NCBI GenBank assembly: GCA_944350015.1
Contig: CALVNW010000003.1
Location: 38,907-102,906 of the forward strand
Length of the DNA stretch: 64,000 bases
DNA from: an uncultured Clostridia bacterium
GTDB lineage: Bacteria; Bacillota; Clostridia; Christensenellales; UBA1242
Direction of reading: 5' to 3'
Under the pieces are notes generated by a model, which made no database searches, was not told where the DNA came from, and saw only the letters and a program-made list of their open reading frames with translations. Positions 25,999 to 61,950 of this stretch are shown piece after piece. A program made the translations under genes and the position numbers. Position 1 is the first letter of the stretch, and each line of letters begins with the position of its first letter.

Positions 25999-27327
25999 AT
26001 GCTATCTTGCGAGGAATTCATTACAAAAAACAAACTTTTTAAGCGTGGAGAGATTATAGGTGTTGGCTGTAGTGGGGGGAGCGACTCAATTGCACTTCTT
26101 CACTATCTTGCCTCAAATCAAGAGAAATTTGATATTGAGGTTGTTGCCATCCACGTTGACCACGAGATAAGAGAAAATAGCTATATTGACGCCGATTTTG
26201 TCAAAGAAAAAGCCAAAGAGCTTGGCGTGCGCTACTATAAATTCAGGGTTGATGCGCCAAAGATTGCTCGCGAGAAGGGCTTGAGCCTTGAGACCGCGGG
26301 AAGACAGGCAAGGTATGGAGTTTTCAAATCACTTTTGCAAAAAGGACTTGTCGACAAGATTGCTCTTGCTCACCATATGTCTGACCAAGCCGAAACTATC
26401 TTGATGCACATATTTAGAGGTAGTGGGGTGGCAGGCGCCAAGGGAATGAGTCCAATTAGCGACAAGGTGTATGTAAGACCATTTTTGAACACCTCAAAGG
26501 ATGACATCTATCAATATTTGGCAGAAAATCACCTTGACTACTGCGAAGATGAAACCAATGAGGATACAACCTACAACCGCAACTTTGTTCGCAATGTCAT
26601 TATGAAGAACATCTTGTCGCGCTGGCCAAATGCCATCGAAGCTATCGTCAATTTCGGACAAGCCATTGCTGATGACGACGAGTTTATCAACAAGCAAATC
26701 TACGCAGAGGCGATTATCAATGAAGACAAACTTGTGAGAATTCCGCTTTCTTACTTCTTGTTTGATAATGCCATTGTCACAAGAATTATCTTTAGGGCGG
26801 TAAAGTCCATCGGCATAACTCAGGACATCGAAAAGAGGCATATCGACCTTATTAAAAAGCTTGCTCTTAATGGCGAGAATGGTAAAAAATTGTCATTGCC
26901 TTTTGAGGCAGTTGCTATTAAGGAATATGACTACCTTACTATTATGAACAATCATAAAGAGAAGTTGAAGTTCGAGGCGCCATTCAAGTGTGGCGAGTTT
27001 GACCTTCCAAATGGTGAAAAACTCATTGTAAAACGTGTTAAAGACTATGCGTTGAAAGAGGGGCAACTTATAATTGATTATAGAAAGGTTCCTAAAGATG
27101 CTATATGGAGATTTAGACGTGAGGGCGATATGTTCACCAAGTTTGGTGGCGGGACTAAGAAACTTAAGTCATATTTGATTGACAAGAAAATCCCTGCAAG
27201 ATTGCGCGACATCTTGCCAGTGCTTGCCGATGAAAATCAAATTTACGCCATAGCAGGTGTGGAGATATCCGACCTTGCAAAAGTTGAGGGCGCCCCAACA
27301 GCCTATTTGATAGAACTAAGAGATTAG
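25999..27327 (+). CDS. tilS: tRNA(Ile)-lysidine synthase
   Basis: PP-loop motif GVGCSGGSDSIALL, 442 aa. Confidence 0.9.
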   Translation: MLSCEEFITKNKLFKRGEIIGVGCSGGSDSIALLHYLASNQEKFDIEVVAIHVDHEIRENSYIDADFVKEKAKELGVRYYKFRVDAPKIAREKGLSLETAGRQARYGVFKSLLQKGLVDKIALAHHMSDQAETILMHIFRGSGVAGAKGMSPISDKVYVRPFLNTSKDDIYQYLAENHLDYCEDETNEDTTYNRNFVRNVIMKNILSRWPNAIEAIVNFGQAIADDDEFINKQIYAEAIINEDKLVRIPLSYFLFDNAIVTRIIFRAVKSIGITQDIEKRHIDLIKKLALNGENGKKLSLPFEAVAIKEYDYLTIMNNHKEKLKFEAPFKCGEFDLPNGEKLIVKRVKDYALKEGQLIIDYRKVPKDAIWRFRREGDMFTKFGGGTKKLKSYLIDKKIPARLRDILPVLADENQIYAIAGVEISDLAKVEGAPTAYLIELRD

Positions 27328-27342
27328 AATAAAAAGAGTGTT

Positions 27343-27379
27343 AACGCCATTTAGTGAATACTGAATGGCGTTTTTTTTA
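27343..27379 (+). terminator. rho-independent terminator of tilS
   Basis: aacgccatt / aatggcgtt stem followed by T8. Confidence 0.8.
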
Positions 27380-27901
27380 TCATAGATACTAGCGTAAACT
27401 CAAAAGAAAAAGATGCTATTGATATTCACCTTTGGTTCCGCTCGTGCTGCCGCACTCGCTCTCTTCGCTCCGCTCGCGCCCGCGGGACCATAGCCCCCGC
27501 GAGGCACGTCGCTCCGCTATCTCTCCGAATAAGCGAGTAGAAAGTAGTACAATAACCTTTCTCTTATATTAATAGAAGATAGCCAACCTTAGGTTGGACC
27601 AATATCGGCAAACTTAGTTTGCATCAGTATCGTTTATTGTACCTGTAATTTTACTGTATCTTGGTCTGTCGGAGTAACCTAAAAAAGATGCTGACATCAC
27701 CTTTAATCGCCGAAAGGCGCGTATTTTAGTTGCCAAAGGCAACCAAAATACCCCTTAGAAACCCTAAAGCTTAGAAAGACCCCACATTCTTTCGAGCCTT
27801 ACGCTCGGCGATTTTAATCATCCTCATAGCAAGAAATTACGGAGAGATAAGCGCTCGTAGCATTTTTTGGTGATAATTTCGAGCGAAGTACGTCAATTTG
27901 C

Positions 27902-27965
27902 TTGACAAAAAATGCGGGGGGGGTAAAATAGGTTAGCAAAAATAAATTTTTGCTAACCTATTTTA
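27902..27965 (+). promoter_or_regulatory. P1 promoter with a G8 tract in its spacer, with the -10 embedded in a perfect palindrome (copy 1)
   Basis: TTGACA 27902-27907. 16-nt spacer ending in G8 (27916-27923). TAAAAT 27924-27929. Palindrome arms 27924-27943 and 27946-27965. Confidence 0.55.
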
Positions 27966-28064
27966 TATTTTTCATATATTTTAGTTTAATTTACTCTTAA
28001 AACAACAAATTAAAAATATTTTAAAATTTGTTATTAAATTTGACGCAATTGTGACGACACGCCT

Positions 28065-28093
28065 GTGACAAAGGGTAAATTAAAGGTTAAAAT
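28065..28093 (+). promoter_or_regulatory. P2 candidate proximal promoter (copy 1)
   Basis: GTGACA, 17-nt spacer, TAAAAT. The block is conserved in copies 1, 2 and 4. TGTGAC occurs twice (28050-28055, 28064-28069). Confidence 0.35.
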
Positions 28094-28158
28094 AGGGGTA
28101 TAAACTAGATGATTTTACACAAAGTAATATAAAAAATTAAATAAAGGAGTAAGAAAAA

Positions 28159-45888: not shown

Positions 45889-45917
45889 GTGACAAAGGGT
45901 AAATTAAAGGTTAAAAT
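45889..45917 (+). promoter_or_regulatory. P2 candidate proximal promoter (copy 2)
   Basis: GTGACA, 17-nt spacer, TAAAAT. Confidence 0.35.
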
Positions 45918-45928
45918 AGGGGTGAATA

Positions 45929-45953
45929 ATGCAAAAATCGTCGATTTTTGCAT
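45929..45953 (+). promoter_or_regulatory. 25-nt perfect palindrome in the leader just downstream of P2 (copy 2)
   Basis: atgcaaaaatcg t cgatttttgcat. Identical at 59413-59437. Confidence 0.5.
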
Positions 45954-46042
45954 AATACTAGATTATTTTACGCAAAGTAATATTAAAAACAAATGCCGAA
46001 AGGTGCCTCTTACTACGAGAGGGTTTTTAAAAGGAGAAAGGT

Positions 46043-48247
46043 ATGAAAAGTTTAAAAGTCAAATTAGTGTCAATAGTGTCGGCGTTTATACTAGCCTTGT
46101 CATTGCTGATAGTTGGAGTATGGGCGGTAGGGAGCCAAACCATTAAACTAAAGGGTAGCGTTACGTTTGAGGTAACAGATAAAAGATTGTATATTAAAGA
46201 TGTTCGTATGCAAGAGAGTATGGATGGTCAGCCTTATAGCTTAAAAGAAGGGGGAGAGTTTATACCTGGGTTTGTTAATACAAGCTTTAGTATGGATTTA
46301 GGCACGTTTGTTAACAGTTACGGCTCCTTTGCCTTATACTTTGATGTCATTAATACGATGGATGAGCAAACAAGTGAGGCTATAGCATATATTGTAGAAC
46401 AAATTACAGCACCAAGCAATGCATCGACAAGCGTGTATTTATTAGACGTAAATGGAATTGAAACAAATAAAATCCCAGAGGGGACAGTGTTTCCTACAGA
46501 AATAAATCCAGACACCCCCATTTCAGCGACAATAAAACTTATTATCACATCGACTCCAAGTGCGCAAGTTGATTTAAATGAAATAGTGCTTACGTTGAGT
46601 GAGTATGAGGCGCAAACTTATGAGTATTTTACTTTTGATATAAACGAAGATAATTCAACAGTGACCTTAACTAAATTTAATGAAGATTTAGCGAATGGAC
46701 TTACAGACATAGTTATACCCGAGAAGGTGGACTGCGTAAACGATGTATGGGTAGATGGTGACAGATATACAGTTACAGCGCTAGCTGGAGGCTCTACTTC
46801 TAACTCGGGAGTGTTTTATAATGCCGGAATAACGAGTATAGAATTGCCTTCAACATTAGAGAGCATTGGAGACTTTACATTCTATGCTTGCAATAGCCTG
46901 CAACCATCAATAACCGACCAAGAGGGTGTAAAATATTTAGGCAATGAACAGAACCCATATATGGTATTATGGGATGGTGATGGCTTAACAACTACAACAT
47001 ATACTGTCAATTCAAACTGTAAATTTATATATACAAATTCGTTTTATTATAATGACAAGCTTACAAACATAGATTTAAGTAAATCTGCAAACTTAATAAG
47101 CATAGGGATAAGTGCATTTAGAGGTTGTCAGATCACAAGTCTTGACTTAAGTGACTGTGCAAATTTAACAAGTATAGGGAGTTCTGCATTCTCTGGTTGT
47201 GACGGTCTTGAAGGGGATTTAAATTTAAAAGCTTGTACAAGTTTAACAAGTATAGGCGATGAAGCATTTTGGAGTTGTTATAATCTTACAGGCCTAACCC
47301 TACCAAATAGTTTAATTAGTATAGGTGATGAGGCGTTTACAGCAATTAGAGAACTTACTGGAACGGTAACAATACCAGCTAGTGTAATGGAAATAGGAAT
47401 CAATCCATTTGGTAGTTGCTGGAGCCTAGAAGGTTTAGTAGTAGAAGAAGAAAATAGCAAATACTATAGCAAAGGTAGTAATTGCATTATAGAAAGTTCA
47501 ACGGATGCAGTAGTGTCAGGCTGTAAAAATTCAACTTTGCCTAGTGATGTTAAATCAATAGGTGAGCGAGCATTCCATCAATGTGAAGAACTAACAAGTA
47601 TAGACTTTAGTAAATGTACTAGTTTATCAAGCATAGACAACTCAGCATTTGACCAGTGCACTGGACTTAAAAGTATAAATTTAAGAGAATGCACTAGTTT
47701 AACAAGTATAGGGGAGTCTGCATTCGAGTATTGCACTGGACTTAAAAGTCTGAGTTTGCCATCAAGCTTAATAAGTATAGGGAGAAGTGCGTTTGACAGT
47801 TGTGAAAACCTTACGGGAACGTTAAACCTAAGTAATTGCACAAGACTAACAAGCATAGGGGTACGTTCATTTTCACAATGCAAGATTACAAGTTTAAGTT
47901 TGCCATCAAGTTTAACGAGTATAGAGAGTAATGCGTTTAGAGAGTGCGAAAGTCTTGAAAATATAACTTTGGCAGAAGGTTTAACAAGTATAGGGGATTA
48001 TGCATTCGCCTCTTGCACTACGCTTACAAATATAACCTTGCCATCAAGTGTAACTTTTATAGGGAAGGGCGTGTTTTATAATTGTGCTTATTTGAATTCG
48101 GTGAGATTTAGCAATACTTCAGGGTGGTATATTACAGAGGATGAGACGGCGACAAGCGGAACAGGCATAACAGTTAGCAATTCTAGTACTAATGCAACAA
48201 ATTTAAAAACAACTTATCGTAGTTACTATTGGAAACGTAATGTGTAG
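46043..48247 (+). CDS. secreted surface protein with a TasA/camelysin-like signal peptide, an N-terminal beta-rich domain and a long BspA-type LRR array
   Basis: MKSLKVKLVSIVSAFILALSLLIVGVWAVG N-terminus. About 14 LRR units (..LTSIGxxAFxxCxxL..). C-terminal tail ..VSNSSTNATNLKTTYRSYYWKRNV. Confidence 0.92.
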   Translation: MKSLKVKLVSIVSAFILALSLLIVGVWAVGSQTIKLKGSVTFEVTDKRLYIKDVRMQESMDGQPYSLKEGGEFIPGFVNTSFSMDLGTFVNSYGSFALYFDVINTMDEQTSEAIAYIVEQITAPSNASTSVYLLDVNGIETNKIPEGTVFPTEINPDTPISATIKLIITSTPSAQVDLNEIVLTLSEYEAQTYEYFTFDINEDNSTVTLTKFNEDLANGLTDIVIPEKVDCVNDVWVDGDRYTVTALAGGSTSNSGVFYNAGITSIELPSTLESIGDFTFYACNSLQPSITDQEGVKYLGNEQNPYMVLWDGDGLTTTTYTVNSNCKFIYTNSFYYNDKLTNIDLSKSANLISIGISAFRGCQITSLDLSDCANLTSIGSSAFSGCDGLEGDLNLKACTSLTSIGDEAFWSCYNLTGLTLPNSLISIGDEAFTAIRELTGTVTIPASVMEIGINPFGSCWSLEGLVVEEENSKYYSKGSNCIIESSTDAVVSGCKNSTLPSDVKSIGERAFHQCEELTSIDFSKCTSLSSIDNSAFDQCTGLKSINLRECTSLTSIGESAFEYCTGLKSLSLPSSLISIGRSAFDSCENLTGTLNLSNCTRLTSIGVRSFSQCKITSLSLPSSLTSIESNAFRECESLENITLAEGLTSIGDYAFASCTTLTNITLPSSVTFIGKGVFYNCAYLNSVRFSNTSGWYITEDETATSGTGITVSNSSTNATNLKTTYRSYYWKRNV

Positions 48248-48349: not shown

Positions 48350-48380
48350 AAACAATTATTTTTACTTTTCAAACATCATT

Positions 48381-48713
48381 AGGAACTCTAAAGTTTAGAA
48401 AGCCCCCACACCAACCTTAGGTTGGACCAGTAGCGTTGAGTGTATCTGTAATTTTATTTTACCTTGGTCCACAAAAACATTAAAAATAATCCTCTTTTTG
48501 GGGTTACAGATAGCGTGTCGCATTTTTTCGAGCCTTACGCTCGGCGTTTTCAACCATCCTCATTGGTAGTTTTTGCGGAGAGATAAGCGATCGTAGCATT
48601 TTTTGGTGATAAATTCGAGCGAAGTACGTCAATTTGCTTGACAAAAAATGCGGGGGGGGTAAAATAGGTTAGCAAAAATAAATTTTTGCTAACCTATTTT
48701 ACAGTAAAAAGGA
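48381..48713 (+). repeat. conserved mosaic upstream cassette, copy 3 of 4 (before gene 48720)
   Basis: Has the ctaaagtttagaaagccccc block, the ccaaccttaggttgg hairpin, a 40-nt unit (48431-48470), the cgagccttacgctcg block and the promoter/palindrome. It lacks the P2/leader part. Confidence 0.85.
48638..48701 (+). promoter_or_regulatory. P1 promoter with G8 spacer tract and palindrome (copy 3)
   Basis: TTGACA 48638-48643, G8 48652-48659, TAAAAT 48660-48665. Palindrome arms 48660-48679 and 48682-48701. The RBS follows within 10 nt. Confidence 0.6.
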
Positions 48714-48719
48714 GTGAAT

Positions 48720-50087
48720 ATGAAAAATTTAAGGTTCAAATTAACATCAGCGGTTATGGCGTTTGTGATTGTGACAAGTTTAGTGATTGTCGCAGTAGTA
48801 GCAGTGCCAAACATCAATTTAAGTATAAATGGCAATGTATCGTTTGTGGTAAACGAGACAGACGTTTACCTAAACAAGGTTACACTTAAGAACACAGTAA
48901 CAGAGATAGAGGAAGGTATCTATCAAGCAGGAGATAAAGTGCTTGATAATTATAGTGACCTATATATCCAAGAAAATACAAGTATAGATATTTCAGATGT
49001 GACAGTATTATCAAATCAGACAATGGAGATAGATTTTGATATGACTTCACTAAATGCAAACTATATCAAAGTGAATTTGTCTTATCAAAACTTGCCAAGC
49101 ACAGTGCATATAGCAAGCACAAGTTTGTATATGCCAAAGAACCCAAGTGAAGATTTGCTCCAAGGAGATACAAGAACATATAAAATTTATATCAAGAACA
49201 CCGGCACTTCAGCATTAAACCTATCAAATATAAATCTTCAGATATCCTTTGAAGAAAAGACTTCTTTACTACAAAATGATACCACAAATCAATACTACTA
49301 TGTAGAGATGGGAACAATAGCCACCTCAACAGGTAGCGAGTATATTAAGTGGAGATATATCTCAGCAGATGGCGAGAATGCATACACCTATAACTCAACC
49401 ACAGCCCCAACAGGGACAGGCTACTTTATCTTAGAAACAAATGTGTTAGATGCTGTAGGCTTAGACGGTACAAACAATATGATAGAGGTGCCATTTAATG
49501 CAGATTATATACAGGATGATGTTGAAGCTGATATAGAAAATCATCATATGCAGAACGGCTGGGAGAATATAGCCGCTAATGACTATTCAACAAGCAATGT
49601 AAGACAATATATCAATGGTAATAATGTATATGATGATAGAACTCTTGCAAACAACATATTTACCCCATCAGGTAGATATTCAAATATGTACGCTGACTAT
49701 AACATAGATCCAGAGAATGACTTAGTATATCAAAATATAATAGGGAGAAGTCTAGGAGATTTATATAAAGGTATGGGCTGGGATGGAAATAAATTTCCAC
49801 CAACATATTTTGATACTACTTTTCCAACCTTTAACGAAGGAGCAACAATAAAGTATACGGAAAATGACGTAGATAAATTCTGGTTATTATCATATAAAGA
49901 AGCTTACAATCTTTTCCCTACTATGTCAGATAGCTTATGGATGGATATATATTGGCTCCGCTCGCCTTATTCCCATACCGGTAAAGGTATGTGGGGATGT
50001 TATGTTGATAGCTCGGGTGATTTCTATTACACTAATGTTGTCCTCAGCAATCTCGCGGCTCGAGCAGCTTTCAAATTTTCGATTTAG
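48720..50087 (+). CDS. secreted protein of the same signal-peptide family with a C-terminal WLRSP..AARAAF (DUF6273-like) domain
   Basis: MKNLRFKLTSAVMAFVIVTSLVIVAVVAV N-terminus. GGAG lies 5 nt before ATG 48720. C-terminal ..DIYWLRSPYSHTG....SNLAARAAFKFSI. Confidence 0.88.
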   Translation: MKNLRFKLTSAVMAFVIVTSLVIVAVVAVPNINLSINGNVSFVVNETDVYLNKVTLKNTVTEIEEGIYQAGDKVLDNYSDLYIQENTSIDISDVTVLSNQTMEIDFDMTSLNANYIKVNLSYQNLPSTVHIASTSLYMPKNPSEDLLQGDTRTYKIYIKNTGTSALNLSNINLQISFEEKTSLLQNDTTNQYYYVEMGTIATSTGSEYIKWRYISADGENAYTYNSTTAPTGTGYFILETNVLDAVGLDGTNNMIEVPFNADYIQDDVEADIENHHMQNGWENIAANDYSTSNVRQYINGNNVYDDRTLANNIFTPSGRYSNMYADYNIDPENDLVYQNIIGRSLGDLYKGMGWDGNKFPPTYFDTTFPTFNEGATIKYTENDVDKFWLLSYKEAYNLFPTMSDSLWMDIYWLRSPYSHTGKGMWGCYVDSSGDFYYTNVVLSNLAARAAFKFSI

Positions 50088-56489: not shown

Positions 56490-56527
56490 AAAAAGATGAG
56501 ATTGATTAGAACCTTTCTCATCTTTTT
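56490..56527 (+). terminator. rho-independent terminator
   Basis: aaaaagatgag / ctcatcttttt. Confidence 0.7.
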
Positions 56528-56655
56528 CATTTATATTATAGAAATTTAATTTACACTCATAGCGCATTGAAATTTTAAAACATTATGACATATTAGATAT
56601 TTTGTTTAAAAGCAATTAAAGATTTTAAATATATGAGGATGTCAAAAGATATTTA

Positions 56656-57363
56656 TCAAAACTCTATTAAAGTAAAACCAGTTCGCCACTGAAAGTTTTT
56701 GCTCAGAAAATTAAATGCCTGCACTTCGCCCATGCCACCAAGTTTTATAAGTCTTAATTTATCGTAGGGGGTGCTATCCAGAATGCGCAATGACGCATAA
56801 CAAGCGTTTGATACTTGCTGACAAAGAGCTGTCTTGCAGGCAGGACAAACAAAACTTCCGTCATTAAAATCAAAATATCTTATATTTAATAATGAATTGC
56901 AACTAGGGCATCGGTCTGTTATAAAGCCATAGCCTAGTGCCTTAAAGATTGCCAGCAAAAATTTGTCAATACAGTAGTATTTTTTTACTTGGTCATAGCA
57001 AAGTGTTTTTAATGCCTTAATTATTTCAATAAAAAGTTGAGGGTCGCTCTCTTTTGCTATTTTGTCTACAATATCAAGTATCGCACAACCCTCATAATAT
57101 CTATCTATATCTTTTGATAAATCATAAAAGTTATCTATTATATCAACAGAGGTGACAATATTTATATTTTTTGTTTGCTCGATAACAAAATCTCCAAAAC
57201 AAAAAATTTCTTTAGCTGACTTTAACTTTGCTTTGTCACCTTTTACGCCTCTCATTGAAGCCAGCATTATGCCATTTTCAAGAGAAAAGAGGTGAATTAT
57301 TTTGTCTTTGTCCTTTGAATCAGTGCTTTTTATAACTATAGCTTTGGTCTTTATGGATGCCAT
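56656..57363 (-). CDS. recO: DNA repair protein RecO
   Basis: N-terminal OB-fold pattern (KAIVIKSTDSKDKDKIIHLFS) and Cys4 zinc motif (CPSCNS...CPACK). Confidence 0.88.
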   Translation of the reverse strand: MASIKTKAIVIKSTDSKDKDKIIHLFSLENGIMLASMRGVKGDKAKLKSAKEIFCFGDFVIEQTKNINIVTSVDIIDNFYDLSKDIDRYYEGCAILDIVDKIAKESDPQLFIEIIKALKTLCYDQVKKYYCIDKFLLAIFKALGYGFITDRCPSCNSLLNIRYFDFNDGSFVCPACKTALCQQVSNACYASLRILDSTPYDKLRLIKLGGMGEVQAFNFLSKNFQWRTGFTLIEF

Positions 57364-57364
57364 T

Positions 57365-57634
57365 TTATTCTAAGTTTATCCCTTCATATTCGCTTTCTAA
57401 TGCTTGTGGCTTTATCGGTGACAGCTCTTTATCTTGATTGTCGGCTTGATTTTGTTTGTTATATTCGCCTAAAAGGTCATAATACTTTTCTGCAAGTTCA
57501 ATTAAAAGTCTCATATCTTCTGTGTCACCAGTAACAGAGGCTACATCTTGCCAAAAACCAAGGTAATCACTCTTTGCTTTAGCAAGTTTTTTCTCTAAAC
57601 TCTTGTCATTCGCGTTATTGTCTTTTTCTTTCAT
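57365..57634 (-). CDS. small YqzL-like protein upstream of recO
   Basis: GGAGGGG lies before ATG 57634. FWQDVASVTGDTEDMRLLIEL resembles the YqzL W..F..TG.I..YLL core. The position next to recO matches Bacillus. Confidence 0.5.
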   Translation of the reverse strand: MKEKDNNANDKSLEKKLAKAKSDYLGFWQDVASVTGDTEDMRLLIELAEKYYDLLGEYNKQNQADNQDKELSPIKPQALESEYEGINLE

Positions 57635-57810
57635 AGCCCCTCCTTTGTTATTATTAGTATATACCAAACATTTAAAAACTTCAACATTTTTTATAGTTTT
57701 TCAAAAAATCTTTTGTCTATTTTTATATGGCTAGGGGGTGAAGATTTGTTCTTAATTGGGAATAATGACAAAATTGCTATAAGTTTTATAAGATAAGGGA
57801 AAATCTATTA

Positions 57811-58329
57811 TTATACTATCTTTGTGATACTGATATTTCCGCTGTTTAGCACTTGCGAGGTGCTGTTTGCGTTTCTGATAGTAATTTCACCAGTAGGCGC
57901 GGTTATTTCAACAAAACTGCTACCAGAGTGAGTCGCAGAAGCGCTAGCAGTACCACTTACCGAAGATAACGATGAAGGTAAAAGCACGCCATTAAGATAT
58001 ATACCATAGCTTGACAAACCATTGCTTGCGATAGTTGCGTTTATATTGTAGTTAATCATATATCTGCCGTTTACAAGGGTGTAAGCACCTAGGTTGTTAT
58101 AGAAAATTGCACTTCCTTGACTGAATGCAGTGTTTGAAAGAACATTGCTGTTTTGCAATATAGTTTGAGCTGTCGCGTCACTTATGATGCTTGAAGATTC
58201 TACAACAGGGTTTATAATAGTTGTGCCCGATTGATTTAAAAGTGCAAGAAAGTTTTGGTAGCAATTAAAGATTGGTCTAGGGAAATTTCTAAAAGAGTTG
58301 CACTGGTTAAAATTTAAGTTACAAGGCAT
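57811..58329 (-). CDS. hypothetical protein, possibly a BclA-C-terminal/C1q-like jelly-roll domain
   Basis: 172 aa, Ser/Asn/Thr-rich beta pattern (..GAYTLVNGRYMINYNINA...GIYLNGVLLPSS....ITIRNANSTSQVLNSGNISITKIV). Assignment is by resemblance only. Confidence 0.55.
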   Translation of the reverse strand: MPCNLNFNQCNSFRNFPRPIFNCYQNFLALLNQSGTTIINPVVESSSIISDATAQTILQNSNVLSNTAFSQGSAIFYNNLGAYTLVNGRYMINYNINATIASNGLSSYGIYLNGVLLPSSLSSVSGTASASATHSGSSFVEITAPTGEITIRNANSTSQVLNSGNISITKIV

Positions 58330-58477
58330 ATTTCCTCCTAAATCACAGCCCTATTACATTATATTAAAATTTGATTTTCTTGACATAGCGATTTAAGTAA
58401 ATTTGGTAAAAACATCGCCTAGTGAAAGTTAAACAATAAATTTTGTAGATAAAATTAAAAAAAATATGAAAAAATAG

Positions 58478-58506
58478 TTGACAATCAAGATAGAATTTGA
58501 TATATT
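58478..58506 (+). promoter_or_regulatory. candidate sigma-A promoter of tRNA-Val
   Basis: TTGACA (58478-58483), 17-nt spacer, TATATT (58501-58506). Confidence 0.5.
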
Positions 58507-58574
58507 AATAAAGCAAACTAAAAGCAAGGGCTGATTACAAGCATCAATTGTAAATGTTTTGCAACAAATTAAAT

Positions 58575-58650
58575 GGAAGTTTAGCTCAGCTGGGAGAGCA
58601 TCTGCCTTACAAGCAGAGGGTCATAGGTTCGAGCCCTATAACTTCCACCA
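58575..58650 (+). tRNA. tRNA-Val (anticodon TAC), CCA encoded
   Basis: Acceptor GGAAGTT/AACTTCC, D arm GCTC..GAGC, anticodon loop CTTACAA, T loop TTCGAGC. Confidence 0.92.
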
Positions 58651-58660
58651 GTAGTATTAG

Positions 58661-58700
58661 ATAAGCATTAGATAACACAATATCTAGTGCTTATTTTTTT
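58661..58700 (+). terminator. terminator after tRNA-Val
   Basis: ataagcattagata / tatctagtgcttat (one G-U pair) followed by T7. Confidence 0.7.
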
Positions 58701-58741
58701 GTTATCTATAAAATTGCCATCAATTATCATAGTAAAAATTA

Positions 58742-58909
58742 TTGTATAACCTGTGTATATCTTCTTTTACAACAGCGTTTAAGATAAGTGTAAATATTGT
58801 CTGGTTTGGTAATGCTAGAGTGTCCTAAATAATTTTGCCGTTTTTTATCTCTATAACCAGCAGAAAATAACCAAATAGGAAATAAAAAAGACAATACAAG
58901 TGTATTGCC
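58742..58909 (-). pseudogene. C-terminal remnant of a tyrosine recombinase/integrase
   Basis: The minus-strand frame reads ..FSAGYRDKKRQNYLGHSSITKPDNIYTYLKRC..*. The LGHSSI..T...Y motif is the catalytic-Tyr end of phage-type integrases. Only about 55 codons are open, with no upstream body. Confidence 0.5.
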
Positions 58910-59208
58910 TTAATTTTAAGCGTATTGGAGAAAACGCTTAAAATTTATTAAGATGTCTTTCTAAACATCTTGACCTAATTATAGCACAAGAATTTTCAAA
59001 AATCAACTAAATACAACATATTTTGTAAAATATTTTACAAAATGTGCAAAATTTAACAAAACCTTATATGTGGGTTACAGATAGCGTGTCGCATTTTTTC
59101 GAGCCTTACGCTCGGCGTTTTTAATCACCCTCATTGACAGAAATTACGGAGTAGTAAAGTGTAGGAGCATTTTTTGGTGATAATTTCGAGCGAAGCACGT
59201 CAATTTGC

Positions 59209-59273
59209 TTGACAAAAAATGCTGGGGGGGTAGAATAGGGTATCCAAAATTTTATTTTGGATACCCTATTCTA
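59209..59273 (+). promoter_or_regulatory. P1 promoter variant (T-interrupted G7 tract) with a co-varied palindrome (copy 4)
   Basis: TTGACA 59209-59214, spacer ..gcTggggggg (G7 59224-59230), TAGAAT 59231-59236. Palindrome arms 59231-59250 and 59254-59273. Confidence 0.5.
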
Positions 59274-59372
59274 TATTTTTATATGTTTTAACCTAAATTT
59301 TCTTTAAAAACAACAAATTAAAAATATTTTAAAATTTGTCATTAAATTTGACGCAATTGTGACGGCGCACTT

Positions 59373-59401
59373 GTGACAAAGGGTAAATTAAAGGTTAAAA
59401 T
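59373..59401 (+). promoter_or_regulatory. P2 candidate proximal promoter (copy 4)
   Basis: GTGACA, 17-nt spacer, TAAAAT. Confidence 0.35.
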
Positions 59402-59412
59402 AGGGGTGAATA

Positions 59413-59437
59413 ATGCAAAAATCGTCGATTTTTGCAT
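59413..59437 (+). promoter_or_regulatory. 25-nt perfect leader palindrome (copy 4)
   Basis: Identical to 45929-45953. Confidence 0.5.
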
Positions 59438-59526
59438 AATATTAGATTATTTTACGCAAAGTAATATTAAAAACAAATGCCGAAAGGTGCCTCTTACTAC
59501 GAGAGGGTTTTTAAAAGGAGAAAGGT

Positions 59527-60912
59527 ATGAAAAGTTTAAAAGTCAAATTAGTGTCAATAGTGTCGGCGTTTATACTAGCCTTATCATTGCTTATAGTTGG
59601 AGTATGGGCGGTAGGGCAGAGCCAAACTATTACAATGGAAGGTAGTGTCAATTTTAATGTTGCCGATAAAAGTCTGTATGTAAAAGATGTACGGATGCAA
59701 GAGGATGTTAATAGCGCGCCGTATAGCCTAAAAGACCAAGACAGGTTTATGCCGGGGTATATCAATGGTAATTTTAATATGAACTTAGGAGAATTTACCA
59801 ATGATTACGGCACCTTTGCACTATATTTTGATATCATCAACACAATGGATGAATCGACAAGTGAAACCTTTGCATATACTGTAGACCCACCAACGCAACC
59901 TAGCAATGGCACAGCTACAATTACAATCCTCGACATTAACGGTGATGCAATCGACCGAATACCACAAGGCACAGTAAAACCATCACAGATTTCAGACAGC
60001 ACACAAGCATCGGCAACAATAAAACTTACAATTGCATCGACCTCATCAACACAAGTTGATTTAAGTGAGATAACAATCACTATCAATCAAGTTGAGCCAA
60101 AAGAAATTTTAGAAGGTTTTATATTTGACGATAGTGGCAATTTAACCTCATACGCAGGTACTGAAAGTGAGGTTACAGTCCCATCCTCATATTCAATGAT
60201 AGGAGAGCCTACAACAAAATCTCTATATTTTGAAAATTTTGATAGTATAAATGAATATGCGATGACATTAGTAAGCTTAACAAATTTTAAGTTAACAACA
60301 GACGATGGCGAAGAATATATATTTGAAGACTACGGAGAAATGGCTTCTTCTTTATATCCTGAAAGCTATTTTCCTTGCACGATAGAGTATAAAGATTATT
60401 CTAATGTTACTTTCACAACAGGCAGTGACTATCAAGTAGAAGGAGTGGTAAGTGCATTTGCATTTAATCAAACAATTCAAACAGTTAATCTACCTGATTC
60501 TATTAAAAATATAGGGCTTTATTCGTTTGTGTCCTCTACTTTAAAGGAGTTGACATTGCCGTCAAGTTTAACAAGTATAGGGTATGGTGCATTCCTTGAT
60601 TGCAGTGGGCTTACAAGTATAGCCTTGCCAGAAGGTTTAACAAGTATAGGAGATTATGCATTCCAAGATTGCAGTGGACTTACAAGTTTAGATTTAAGCG
60701 GATGTACAAGTTTAACAAGTATAGGAAATTGGGCATTCTCTTATTGCAGTGATTTAAAGTCAGTTGTTTTTCCTGAAGGTTCAACAGGGTGGGAAGTGTC
60801 AACTTCGTCATCTATGACAAATCCAATTCCTGTTGATGTAACAAATTCTAGCACCAACGCAAGCAATCTTACTGGGCAGTATAGCACTTACTACTGGAAA
60901 CGTAATGTGTAG
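59527..60912 (+). CDS. secreted mosaic surface protein (N-domain like gene 46043, middle module like gene 28159, short BspA-type LRR array)
   Basis: The first 30 aa are identical to the 46043 product. Residues from about 194 to 341 are nearly identical to the 28159 product. It has 4-5 LRR units and the tail ..VTNSSTNASNLTGQYSTYYWKRNV. Confidence 0.92.
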   Translation: MKSLKVKLVSIVSAFILALSLLIVGVWAVGQSQTITMEGSVNFNVADKSLYVKDVRMQEDVNSAPYSLKDQDRFMPGYINGNFNMNLGEFTNDYGTFALYFDIINTMDESTSETFAYTVDPPTQPSNGTATITILDINGDAIDRIPQGTVKPSQISDSTQASATIKLTIASTSSTQVDLSEITITINQVEPKEILEGFIFDDSGNLTSYAGTESEVTVPSSYSMIGEPTTKSLYFENFDSINEYAMTLVSLTNFKLTTDDGEEYIFEDYGEMASSLYPESYFPCTIEYKDYSNVTFTTGSDYQVEGVVSAFAFNQTIQTVNLPDSIKNIGLYSFVSSTLKELTLPSSLTSIGYGAFLDCSGLTSIALPEGLTSIGDYAFQDCSGLTSLDLSGCTSLTSIGNWAFSYCSDLKSVVFPEGSTGWEVSTSSSMTNPIPVDVTNSSTNASNLTGQYSTYYWKRNV

Positions 60913-60966
60913 GGAGCCAGGAAGGGCAACAAAATCCCAGTTGAAAAAGAGCCTTAAAAAATAAAG

Positions 60967-61002
60967 AACAATGATTGCATATGATACCAATCATTGTTTT
61001 TT
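60967..61002 (+). terminator. rho-independent terminator
   Basis: aacaatgattg / caatcattgtt stem followed by a T run. Confidence 0.75.
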
Positions 61003-61266
61003 AAATAGGCATATTAGAACTATTAAGTAAATTTTATTTATCTTAATTATTAACTTATTAAAATTAAATTTAAAAATAGTTATTTCTGAGTGTTATTTTT
61101 TTGCCTATAAATTAAGTTGTATTTATCTAAAAAAATATTTTGATGATAAAAAATTAACAAATAATTTATAAAAACATCAAAAAATAGTACAGAAATTTGA
61201 CTTTTGATATGATTTTAACTATAATATCTTCGTTGTTTAAAAATAAGTTATACAAAGGATGAAAAA

Positions 61267-61950
61267 ATGAGAAAGATATTTACAACTATTACAGCATTTA
61301 TGATGGTGTTATTTTCGGGTGCTATGTTGACTGCTTGTGACGAAGAGCCCATTTTATATACAATAACTTATAATCAATCAGAAGATTATATTGTTACACT
61401 CAGCAAAACTGAAGCACAAGCAGGCGAGAGTGTAGAGGTTATCATTGATACAGAATATGCAATAGTCAGCGTATATACAGATGGCAATGCCTGTGAGAAA
61501 GTCGAAGAGAATAAATATTCTTTTACGATGCCTGCAGAGGATGTAAATTTGTCAATAGAACTTGAAAATACACCCTTGGACATAACAAAAGGTAATATTT
61601 ATATTAAAGACCTATGGCTAGAGGATATGACTGGCGAAAGGGTGACTGTAGATAATTTTAGACCAAGCTATATTACTGAAACATTTACATTGCCATCAAT
61701 GATATTAGACCAAGAATATTATACAATAAATATAGAGGCAATCAACCTAACAGAATCAGACTATTTGATAGAATTAACTTGCAATGATATAAACGCAGAG
61801 GCTTATATGCTTGTCGTAGCTCTTAGTTCAGAGCAAGAACTCGAAGGACTTACATTAGGGAGCAAGGGCGAGATATTGATAGCAGAGTTATATTCATTTG
61901 CCACTAACATAGACTTAAGTTCGCTAACAATCACATTTATAAGTCTTTAA
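61267..61950 (+). CDS. lipoprotein with a beta-rich domain related to the N-domains of the LRR family
   Basis: Lipobox LTAC (MRKIFTTITAFMMVLFSGAMLTAC). The C-terminal part (..GNIYIKDLWLEDMTGERV...YTINIEAINLTESDY..) echoes ..LYIKDVRMQE...FDVINTMDE.. of the paralogues. Confidence 0.75.
   Translation: MRKIFTTITAFMMVLFSGAMLTACDEEPILYTITYNQSEDYIVTLSKTEAQAGESVEVIIDTEYAIVSVYTDGNACEKVEENKYSFTMPAEDVNLSIELENTPLDITKGNIYIKDLWLEDMTGERVTVDNFRPSYITETFTLPSMILDQEYYTINIEAINLTESDYLIELTCNDINAEAYMLVVALSSEQELEGLTLGSKGEILIAELYSFATNIDLSSLTITFISL

Follow-up and report, generated by a model that had tools for sequence, protein, structure and literature searches.

How does a gene come to carry the front end of one set of its paralogues and the body of another? 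The question is raised by gene 59527 (59527-60912), which lies in the 64,000-nucleotide (nt) stretch of an uncultured Clostridia genome analysed here (the window, corresponding to positions 38907-102906 of contig C3) and whose product of 461 amino acids (aa) belongs to a family of BspA-type leucine-rich repeat (LRR) proteins. A preliminary description of this DNA took the gene for a chimera of two other paralogues and its identity boundaries for evidence of cassette exchange, the layout of an antigenic-variation family. Comparison with the whole genome gives a different answer: gene 59527 is a mosaic of at least five pieces and not a two-gene chimera. We put at about 0.8 the probability that it is an intact, inherited mosaic, belonging to a dispersed family of 33 copies and made by two layers of recombination.

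The studied assembly measures 1.25 Mb in 28 contigs, with a GC content of about 35%. Paralogues are named here by contig and start, so that C3_15926, which lies outside the window, is C3:15926-18595. When all open reading frames (ORFs) of the assembly are searched with phmmer, 37 matches to the family are found, of which 33 were retained as members; these take up 4.1% of the assembly and are spread over at least 14 contigs. The protein encoded by gene 59527 consists, in order, of a hydrophobic N-terminal helix, a beta-rich N domain, a middle module (M), three BspA-type LRR units and a YYWKRNV tail. The parts of the gene and of its partner loci are as follows.

59130-59372, plus strand: distal upstream module (U1), read from the sequence as containing promoter P1 (59209-59236)
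59373-59526, plus strand: proximal leader (U2), from the "P2 element" to the ribosome-binding site, delimited by alignment
59527-59613, plus strand: putative signal or anchor peptide of 29 codons (MKSLKVKL...GVWAV), with a helix at residues 3-28 in the model
59614-60096, plus strand: type-A N-terminal beta-sandwich domain, assigned from the tree and the model
60097-60105, plus strand: A/B junction, GTTGAGCCA, codons V191-E192-P193
60106-60549, plus strand: middle module M, an LRR N-cap with an alpha/beta insert
60249-60495, plus strand: tract exchanged with gene 28159
60550-60912, plus strand: three BspA-type LRR units and the conserved YYWKRNV tail
28159-29898, plus strand: gene 28159, the exchange partner, with a type-B head, M (28732-29175), LRRs and tail
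45889-46130, plus strand: leader and signal-peptide block of gene 46043, near-identical to 59373-59614

When the interval 59100-61100 is painted against the whole genome, the best-matching paralogue switches at about 59370, 59580, 60096, 60230 and 60550. The nearest copy of U1 lies upstream of C3_103938 (96.5%, or 95-100% per 60-nt window), while the leader and signal block (59373-59613) is closest to gene 46043 and C5_65052, at 98-100%. The N domain (59614-60096) is 92.5% identical in nucleotides to C3:17995-18474, within gene C3_15926, and at most 75% identical to every other copy. Besides gene 59527, M (60097-60549) is carried in this genome by five genes only (28159, C20_1, C5_39125, C25_3491 and C5_30218), at 89-91%. 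The LRRs and tail (60550-60912) give mixed matches, the tail being closest to C5_39125 and C5_65052. The idea of two parents therefore does not survive: the nearest N domain is that of C3_15926, the N domain of gene 46043 is only about 64-69% identical, and M is common to five genes with another type of head.

It is at the joint between head and middle module that two lineages of the family meet. The five other M-bearing genes all have a type-B head (MSLKMKL...VENLSTERSL), and gene 59527 has a type-A head. In a tree of the signal peptide and N domain, gene 59527 falls within the A clade (support 100/100), separated by long branches from the B clade of gene 28159, so the N domains of these two genes are indeed as divergent as had been described. 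A tree constrained to hold the M-bearing genes together as a single clade is 479 log-likelihood units worse and is rejected (approximately unbiased test, p-AU 3e-88). The segment phylogenies, whose congruence had been proposed as a refutation of recombination, are thus incongruent. All four combinations of head type with presence or absence of M occur, and likewise all four of M presence with tail type. In a set of 123 proteins (the query and the 122 database homologues listed), the pairing of a type-A head with M is seen only in P0001, P0005 and P0006, all of them alleles of the gene 59527 locus; 48 have type-A heads without M and with the canonical INQxxPEVYDYFTF continuation, and 14 combine type-B heads with M. 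The canonical A architecture is also present in a related species. Since A heads with M are confined to the alleles of one locus and the canonical A form is found elsewhere, the combination is derived and arose once.

The joint itself leaves little room for homology. Up to and including ATCAATCAA on its left, the sequence matches the A-type gene exactly; from GCCAAAAGAAATT on its right, it matches the B-type genes exactly; and all that the parents have in common there is GCCA, inside the 9-nt stretch 60097-60105. The fusion is in register, and in the model it falls in a loop or linker between the last strand of the N domain (residues 183-189) and the first of the LRR cap (198-200). The same joint is found in other assemblies. 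BRZ_C has the identical 461-aa protein on a 19.5-kb contig with the same neighbouring genes, and in BRZ_Q the identical protein was assembled independently. The ONAT22-1 allele (P0005) has the same junction and 2 aa differences, and the BRZ_BE allele (P0006, 584 aa) shares position, head and junction, while its M centre and tail are different and its LRRs more numerous. The junction is thus present in five assemblies from two projects, which is a strong argument against an assembly chimera. On the sequence record, the joint is an old, fixed, single event, nearly free of homology and present in all strains, and not the edge of a recent conversion for which it had been taken. In a related Clostridia metagenome-assembled genome (MAG; CAMLSW01, L007 3001-5541), a type-A head is found with an NYTVYSK tail, a combination not seen in the studied genome, which suggests that heads and tails re-assort across species too.

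Upstream of the N domain, the relationships are of another kind. Between 59373-59614 and 45889-46130 there are 3 substitutions in 242 nt (98.8%), the number estimated by eye beforehand. In the leader (59373-59526), identity reaches 99.4% (1/154 differing) with gene 46043 and with C5_65052, and lies at 87-92% with the other leaders of the family. The signal peptide differs from that of gene 46043 at 2 of 88 nt, with a synonymous divergence (dS) of 0.098, against a dS of 2.08 in the N domain. The block shared with gene 46043 ends sharply on its right, at 59615, and fades gradually on its left, so that of the sharp identity edges previously claimed only the right one holds here. It might be supposed that no recombination is needed, the blocks reflecting differing constraint, with a conserved leader and signal and a fast-evolving N domain and M centre. 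Signal peptides and leaders are indeed constrained, and the ratio of nonsynonymous to synonymous divergence (dN/dS) does vary by module. But synonymous divergence changes about 20-fold across 59615, and the contrast between the N domain (dS about 2.1), the signal (0.098) and the leader (1/154) means that selection on the protein is no explanation. Nor does constraint account for a non-coding leader that is near-identical to two copies only, for a head tree that rejects the M-bearing genes as a single clade, or for clusters of 10-15 changes between strains (described below) on a background of no substitutions, which cannot be point mutation. Constraint by itself is thus extremely improbable, being effectively refuted already by the strain clusters, the head tree and the dS contrast.

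The middle module carries a further exchange. Over 60106-60550 and 28732-29175 there are 41 differences in 445 columns (90.8% nt identity), and the proteins are 87.9% identical over 149 aa, with about 18 differences, in agreement with the manual count over about 148 residues. A 59-nt string given as an example of long identity does occur exactly in both genes (28876 and 60250), within a perfect run of 60 nt (60249-60308). Given 41 differences in 445 nt, this run alone is within chance (permutation p=0.08), and it was dropped as stand-alone evidence. The differences are unevenly distributed, with 23 in 134 nt before 60240 and 18 in 311 nt after it (p=3e-4, for a cut chosen post hoc). Breakpoint analysis, of the kind that had been proposed, was made with triplet max-chi-square tests; p is below 0.001 with each of four other paralogues, and the breakpoint falls at 60226-60246. 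Likeness specific to gene 28159 is confined to about 60240-60495, and the first 130 nt or so of M are closer to the C20, C25 and C5 copies. Within 60249-60495, the two genes of this genome share perfect runs of 60, 38, 39 and 44 nt. The dN/dS of M is about 0.2-0.8 overall, with about 0.5-0.8 for most paralogue pairs and about 0.24-0.35 against gene 28159. Type-B heads have a dN/dS of 0.2-0.37, lower than M in most pairs. The variable residues of M are concentrated in 60237-60372, a candidate ligand-contact or epitope patch. An origin of this variable centre by a diversity-generating retroelement was set aside on the ground that exact donors of the variants exist elsewhere in the family.

The comparison of loci between strains, also called for in the preliminary description, catches the process itself. 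In the 15 kb compared, the sister strain (ONAT22-1 scaffold_258) shows 0 differences in the flanks of the gene 28159 locus, over about 2.65 kb to the left and about 3.86 kb to the right. The gene and its upstream region show 42 differences, and all of them fall inside four clusters, in each of which one variant has an exact match at another paralogue.

27811-27858 (T1): the sister variant is 100% identical to the sequence upstream of C3_103938
28055-28131 (T2): the studied-genome variant is 100% identical to the C25 leader
28230-28352 (T3): the studied-genome variant is 100% identical to gene C3_103938, within a 314-nt perfect run (28141-28454)
28935-29037 (T4): the sister variant is 100% identical to gene 59527 (60294-60426)

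The sister's orthologues of genes 59527 and 28159 share a single perfect run of 247 nt (60249-60495). The direction of T4 can be read from the other paralogues, which mostly match gene 28159 of the studied genome at 6 of 10 sites and the sister state at 3. Third alleles of the locus, fetched through the neighbouring tilS gene, polarise the others: L046 has the T1 state of the studied genome, and L048 has the T2 and T3 states of the sister. An exact look-up of the gene 28159 protein found it in no other assembly, and its 90% cluster holds two members only. Taken together, paralogue states and third alleles place T1 and T4 in the sister lineage (T4 running from 59527 to 28159) and T2 and T3 in the studied lineage. 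At least four conversion events thus stand against 0 flank substitutions between the two strains; patches that differ while the flanks are identical imply that conversion outpaces point mutation at these loci. Recent, ongoing gene conversion among family members is therefore real, as had been proposed. Some members are very stable. Two further assemblies have gene 59527 without any change, and five others have the gene 46043 coding sequence with 0 nt differences. Between gene 59527 and its sister orthologue, 4 nt differ by one count and 7 sites by another, three of the 7 forming a cluster at 60153-60162. In BRZ_C and BRZ_BE, polymorphism is dense in the spacer right after gene 46043 and at the start of the next ORF (48714-50087), with dozens of differences within about 300 nt (window 48363-48840). 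In other metagenome assemblies the contigs (L046, L047 and L048) end 0.5-1 kb past tilS, within hairpin and promoter repeats upstream of gene 28159, and in L047 and L048 this upstream region (window 27327-28159) is differently composed, with insertions and deletions of 15-140 nt.

Such breakage raises the question of whether de Bruijn assemblers, working on metagenomes, have mis-joined near-identical segments of paralogues. Many family members do lie at contig ends, other assemblies break after tilS at the upstream repeats, and shared runs of 40-80 nt on either side of the patches could confuse an assembler. The overall pattern is nonetheless reproducible across assemblies, as is the junction. 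Nor are the segments of gene 59527 duplicated contig pieces, since even their nearest copies reach an identity of only 83-93%. On the sister scaffold both loci have the patch of 59527 type, an outcome that simple path swapping would not yield, and the sister's T2 and T3 states recur in a third allele. As an explanation of the pattern, assembly error is very unlikely.

Several observations weigh against the two-layer mosaic nevertheless. The pairwise homoplasy index (PHI) test on six M modules is borderline (p=0.056), and for this reason weight is placed on the triplet max-chi-square tests and on the strain comparisons. These comparisons were made at the level of contigs, and for individual events it is possible that an assembler mis-threaded a short patch between paralogues. 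RecA dependence, expression and surface location are points that we infer. Finally, the BRZ_BE allele differs from the joint onward, and its downstream flank (compared to 63300) is diverged by about 3%, so that some allelic differences stem from between-strain exchange. On that contig (L003), a stretch of about 2.6 kb upstream (56527-59100) matches the window with 0 differences and 5 occur from there up to the A/B joint, a pattern that suggests a between-strain exchange breakpoint inside the surface-protein gene.

Could exchange between strains or species, by allelic recombination or horizontal transfer, have made most of the pattern? Near-identity of BRZ_BE over about 3.5 kb up to the junction, followed by divergence, speaks for it, as does the fact that the closest relative of M in gene 59527 is found in a B-head gene known only from other samples (P0023, 91% aa). 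But an exact donor for all four patches exists in the same genome, and the flanks carry no imported polymorphism. We consider this origin unlikely for the pattern as a whole; it may hold for the 3' half of the BRZ_BE allele, where it is compatible with an inherited mosaic shaped by conversion between paralogues.

A model of how the two-layer mosaic was built can then be proposed. The first layer would be a single old event, in which a type-A head (leader, signal and N domain) was fused in register to a type-B body (middle module, LRRs and tail), the inter-domain linker serving as the fusion site with about 4-9 nt of microhomology. Its route was probably homology-facilitated illegitimate recombination, anchored on conserved upstream sequence or on the conserved LRR and tail sequence. 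In the second layer, homologous ectopic gene conversion, presumably of the RecA type, would copy patches of 50-300 nt between paralogues: the leader and signal with genes 46043 and C5_65052, and the centre of M with gene 28159. The outcome would be combinatorial variation of surface-exposed modules, achieved without dedicated cassette machinery, to which copied poly-G promoters probably add expression switching.

These promoters share a characteristic form. P1 (59209-59236) reads TTGACA-N16-TAGAAT with a T+G7 run in the spacer, and the same type, TTGACA-(G7/8)-TAGAAT, is found at no fewer than 10 loci of the genome with a run length of G7 or G8. At position 59223, a G-to-T change breaks the G8 run of the 59527 promoter (giving T+G7 at the same spacer length) in the studied genome and two assemblies, and the run is an intact G8 in BRZ_C and BRZ_BE; the change might lock P1 against slippage. 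A perfect inverted repeat with 20-nt arms, TAGAATAGGGTATCCAAAAT-TTT-ATTTTGGATACCCTATTCTA, extends over 59230-59272, with the -10 box of P1 as its outer part. It was copied along with the promoter and could act as operator, as early terminator or as a site of recombination.

Does this amount to a programmed system, with frequent one-way transfer of cassettes into expressed genes behind phase-variable promoters? The size of the family in so small a genome, the copying of poly-G promoters, conversion between strains with 0 substitutions in the flanks, the high dN/dS of M and the truncated copies, which are possible donors, all favour such a system. What the loci contain is different. There is no single expression site with promoterless partial donor cassettes, and at least 10 family promoters of the same type exist; the donors identified (59527 and C3_103938) are whole ORFs, each with its start codon and its upstream modules; and the strain comparisons show exchange between loci in both directions. 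The stability of genes 59527 and 46043 across assemblies speaks against rapid switching. A specialised recombinase or cis element was not found, an integrase remnant being all that the preliminary description had noted. A dedicated cassette system is accordingly quite improbable, and the layout first proposed is not supported. The looser idea, that the family and its poly-G promoters form a working combinatorial surface-variation system in which some 33 paralogues are expressed and conversion runs much faster than point mutation, has better chances and is still doubtful.

LRR_5 (Pfam PF13306) is recognised in the protein of gene 59527 at 1.7e-28, and the score of 99.5 bits (P0001) is well above the cut-off of 27.7, as are those of P0002 (188.8) and P0003 (272.3). 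An AlphaFold2 model built from 76 homologues is confident, with a predicted local distance difference test (pLDDT) value of 87.5. With Foldseek, the LRR part of the model best matches Treponema pallidum TpLRR (6mlx, E=3e-6), other matches being LRR cell-surface proteins of Bacteroides and Faecalibacterium (4fd0 and 4gt6). The type-A N domain (residues 30-190) is a beta-sandwich in the model, with strands within residues 36-189, and has weak Foldseek matches to chaperone-usher pilins (FimA, E around 2e-3). SipW/TasA-type or pilin-like heads were considered and are not claimed, since the domain has no NCBIfam or Pfam match and the FimA-like fold match is weak. The type-A head is an undescribed domain, present in many proteins from gut MAGs. 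Residues 3-28 form a hydrophobic helix in both sequence and model, followed by VWA-V, and a known anchor motif was looked for in the protein and not found. The family is predicted to consist of secreted surface proteins. Elsewhere in the region, an Rfam scan of 58400-61400 returned nothing above the gathering score except a tRNA-Val, and gene 28159 is adjoined by the sporulation genes YabP and YabQ.

Ectopic recombination among paralogues of surface proteins is a well-known mechanism, and what is seen here is not a new kind of system. Judged by analogy, its closest counterparts are the bab chimeras of Helicobacter pylori and inlH of Listeria, not pilE/pilS. In H. pylori, chimeras of babA, babB and babC arise by intragenomic gene conversion (PMC4552749). 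There too, full-length adhesin paralogues at dispersed loci undergo 5' or central conversion, giving strain-specific chimeras at a fixed locus, and the exchange also carries a slippage-prone repeat and its regulation between genes. The family studied here likewise has dispersed full-length paralogues and strain-specific chimeric alleles that match another paralogue, the alleles of gene 59527 differing between strains in the M centre and the 3' half. It differs in having 33 copies rather than 3, in encoding BspA-type LRR proteins in a MAG of Gram-positive-type Clostridia rather than outer-membrane beta-barrels, and in placing a poly-G run in the promoter spacer where bab has a CT repeat in the coding region; it is also known from sequences alone.

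In Listeria monocytogenes, inlH consists of the 5' end of inlC2 and inlD's 3' end (PMC3977354). It is likewise an LRR surface gene made from the head of one paralogue and the tail of another, and it is fixed in some strains and functional. The difference is that inlH came from recombination of neighbouring tandem genes in which the interval was lost, whereas here the partners are dispersed, the joint is almost without homology and patches were added later. A crossover between adjacent tandem genes with deletion does not fit gene 59527: the nearest relatives of its two halves lie about 80 kb away on the same contig or on other contigs, and GCCA alone is shared at the joint.

Other well-studied systems are more distant. 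Neisseria pilE/pilS, Borrelia vlsE, Treponema tprK and Mycoplasma genitalium MgPa rely on one expression site, promoterless partial donors and one-way transfer. They share with this family the segmental gene conversion that makes mosaic surface-protein genes, but in the present case whole genes are the donors, with the family's common upstream sequences in front of them, and transfer runs both ways. Variation of vlp in Mycoplasma hyorhinis comes from repeat expansion and promoter slippage, without module shuffling. Like vlp, and like opa and porA of Neisseria, this is a multigene surface family in a small genome with copied promoters that carry a homopolymer in the spacer; unlike the slippage- and repeat-based vlp system, it shuffles modules, and for its promoters only G7 and G8 counts are seen. 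The repeat and fold are those of Tannerella BspA, of TpLRR (6mlx) and of the BspA-like family in Trichomonas (PMC2843621), likewise a large family of a host-associated species. Descriptions of those proteins do not include the type-A and type-B heads, the middle module, or the YYWKRNV and YTVYSK tails.

Gene 59527 and its relatives indicate that an uncultured gut commensal reshuffles the modules of a large family of LRR adhesins, and that this is visible from public metagenome assemblies alone. Conversion patch by patch can be detected, and even polarised, between strains that are otherwise identical. Genes of this sort are unreliable as markers of strains, and assemblies frequently break at them. 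The loci described here are offered for the study of strain-level surface variation and of host and phage interaction in gut Clostridia. If the family did prove to be a working variation system, it would be a Firmicute counterpart of the families of mycoplasmas, Helicobacter and Neisseria, one built of BspA-type LRR adhesins with exchangeable heads, middles and tails.

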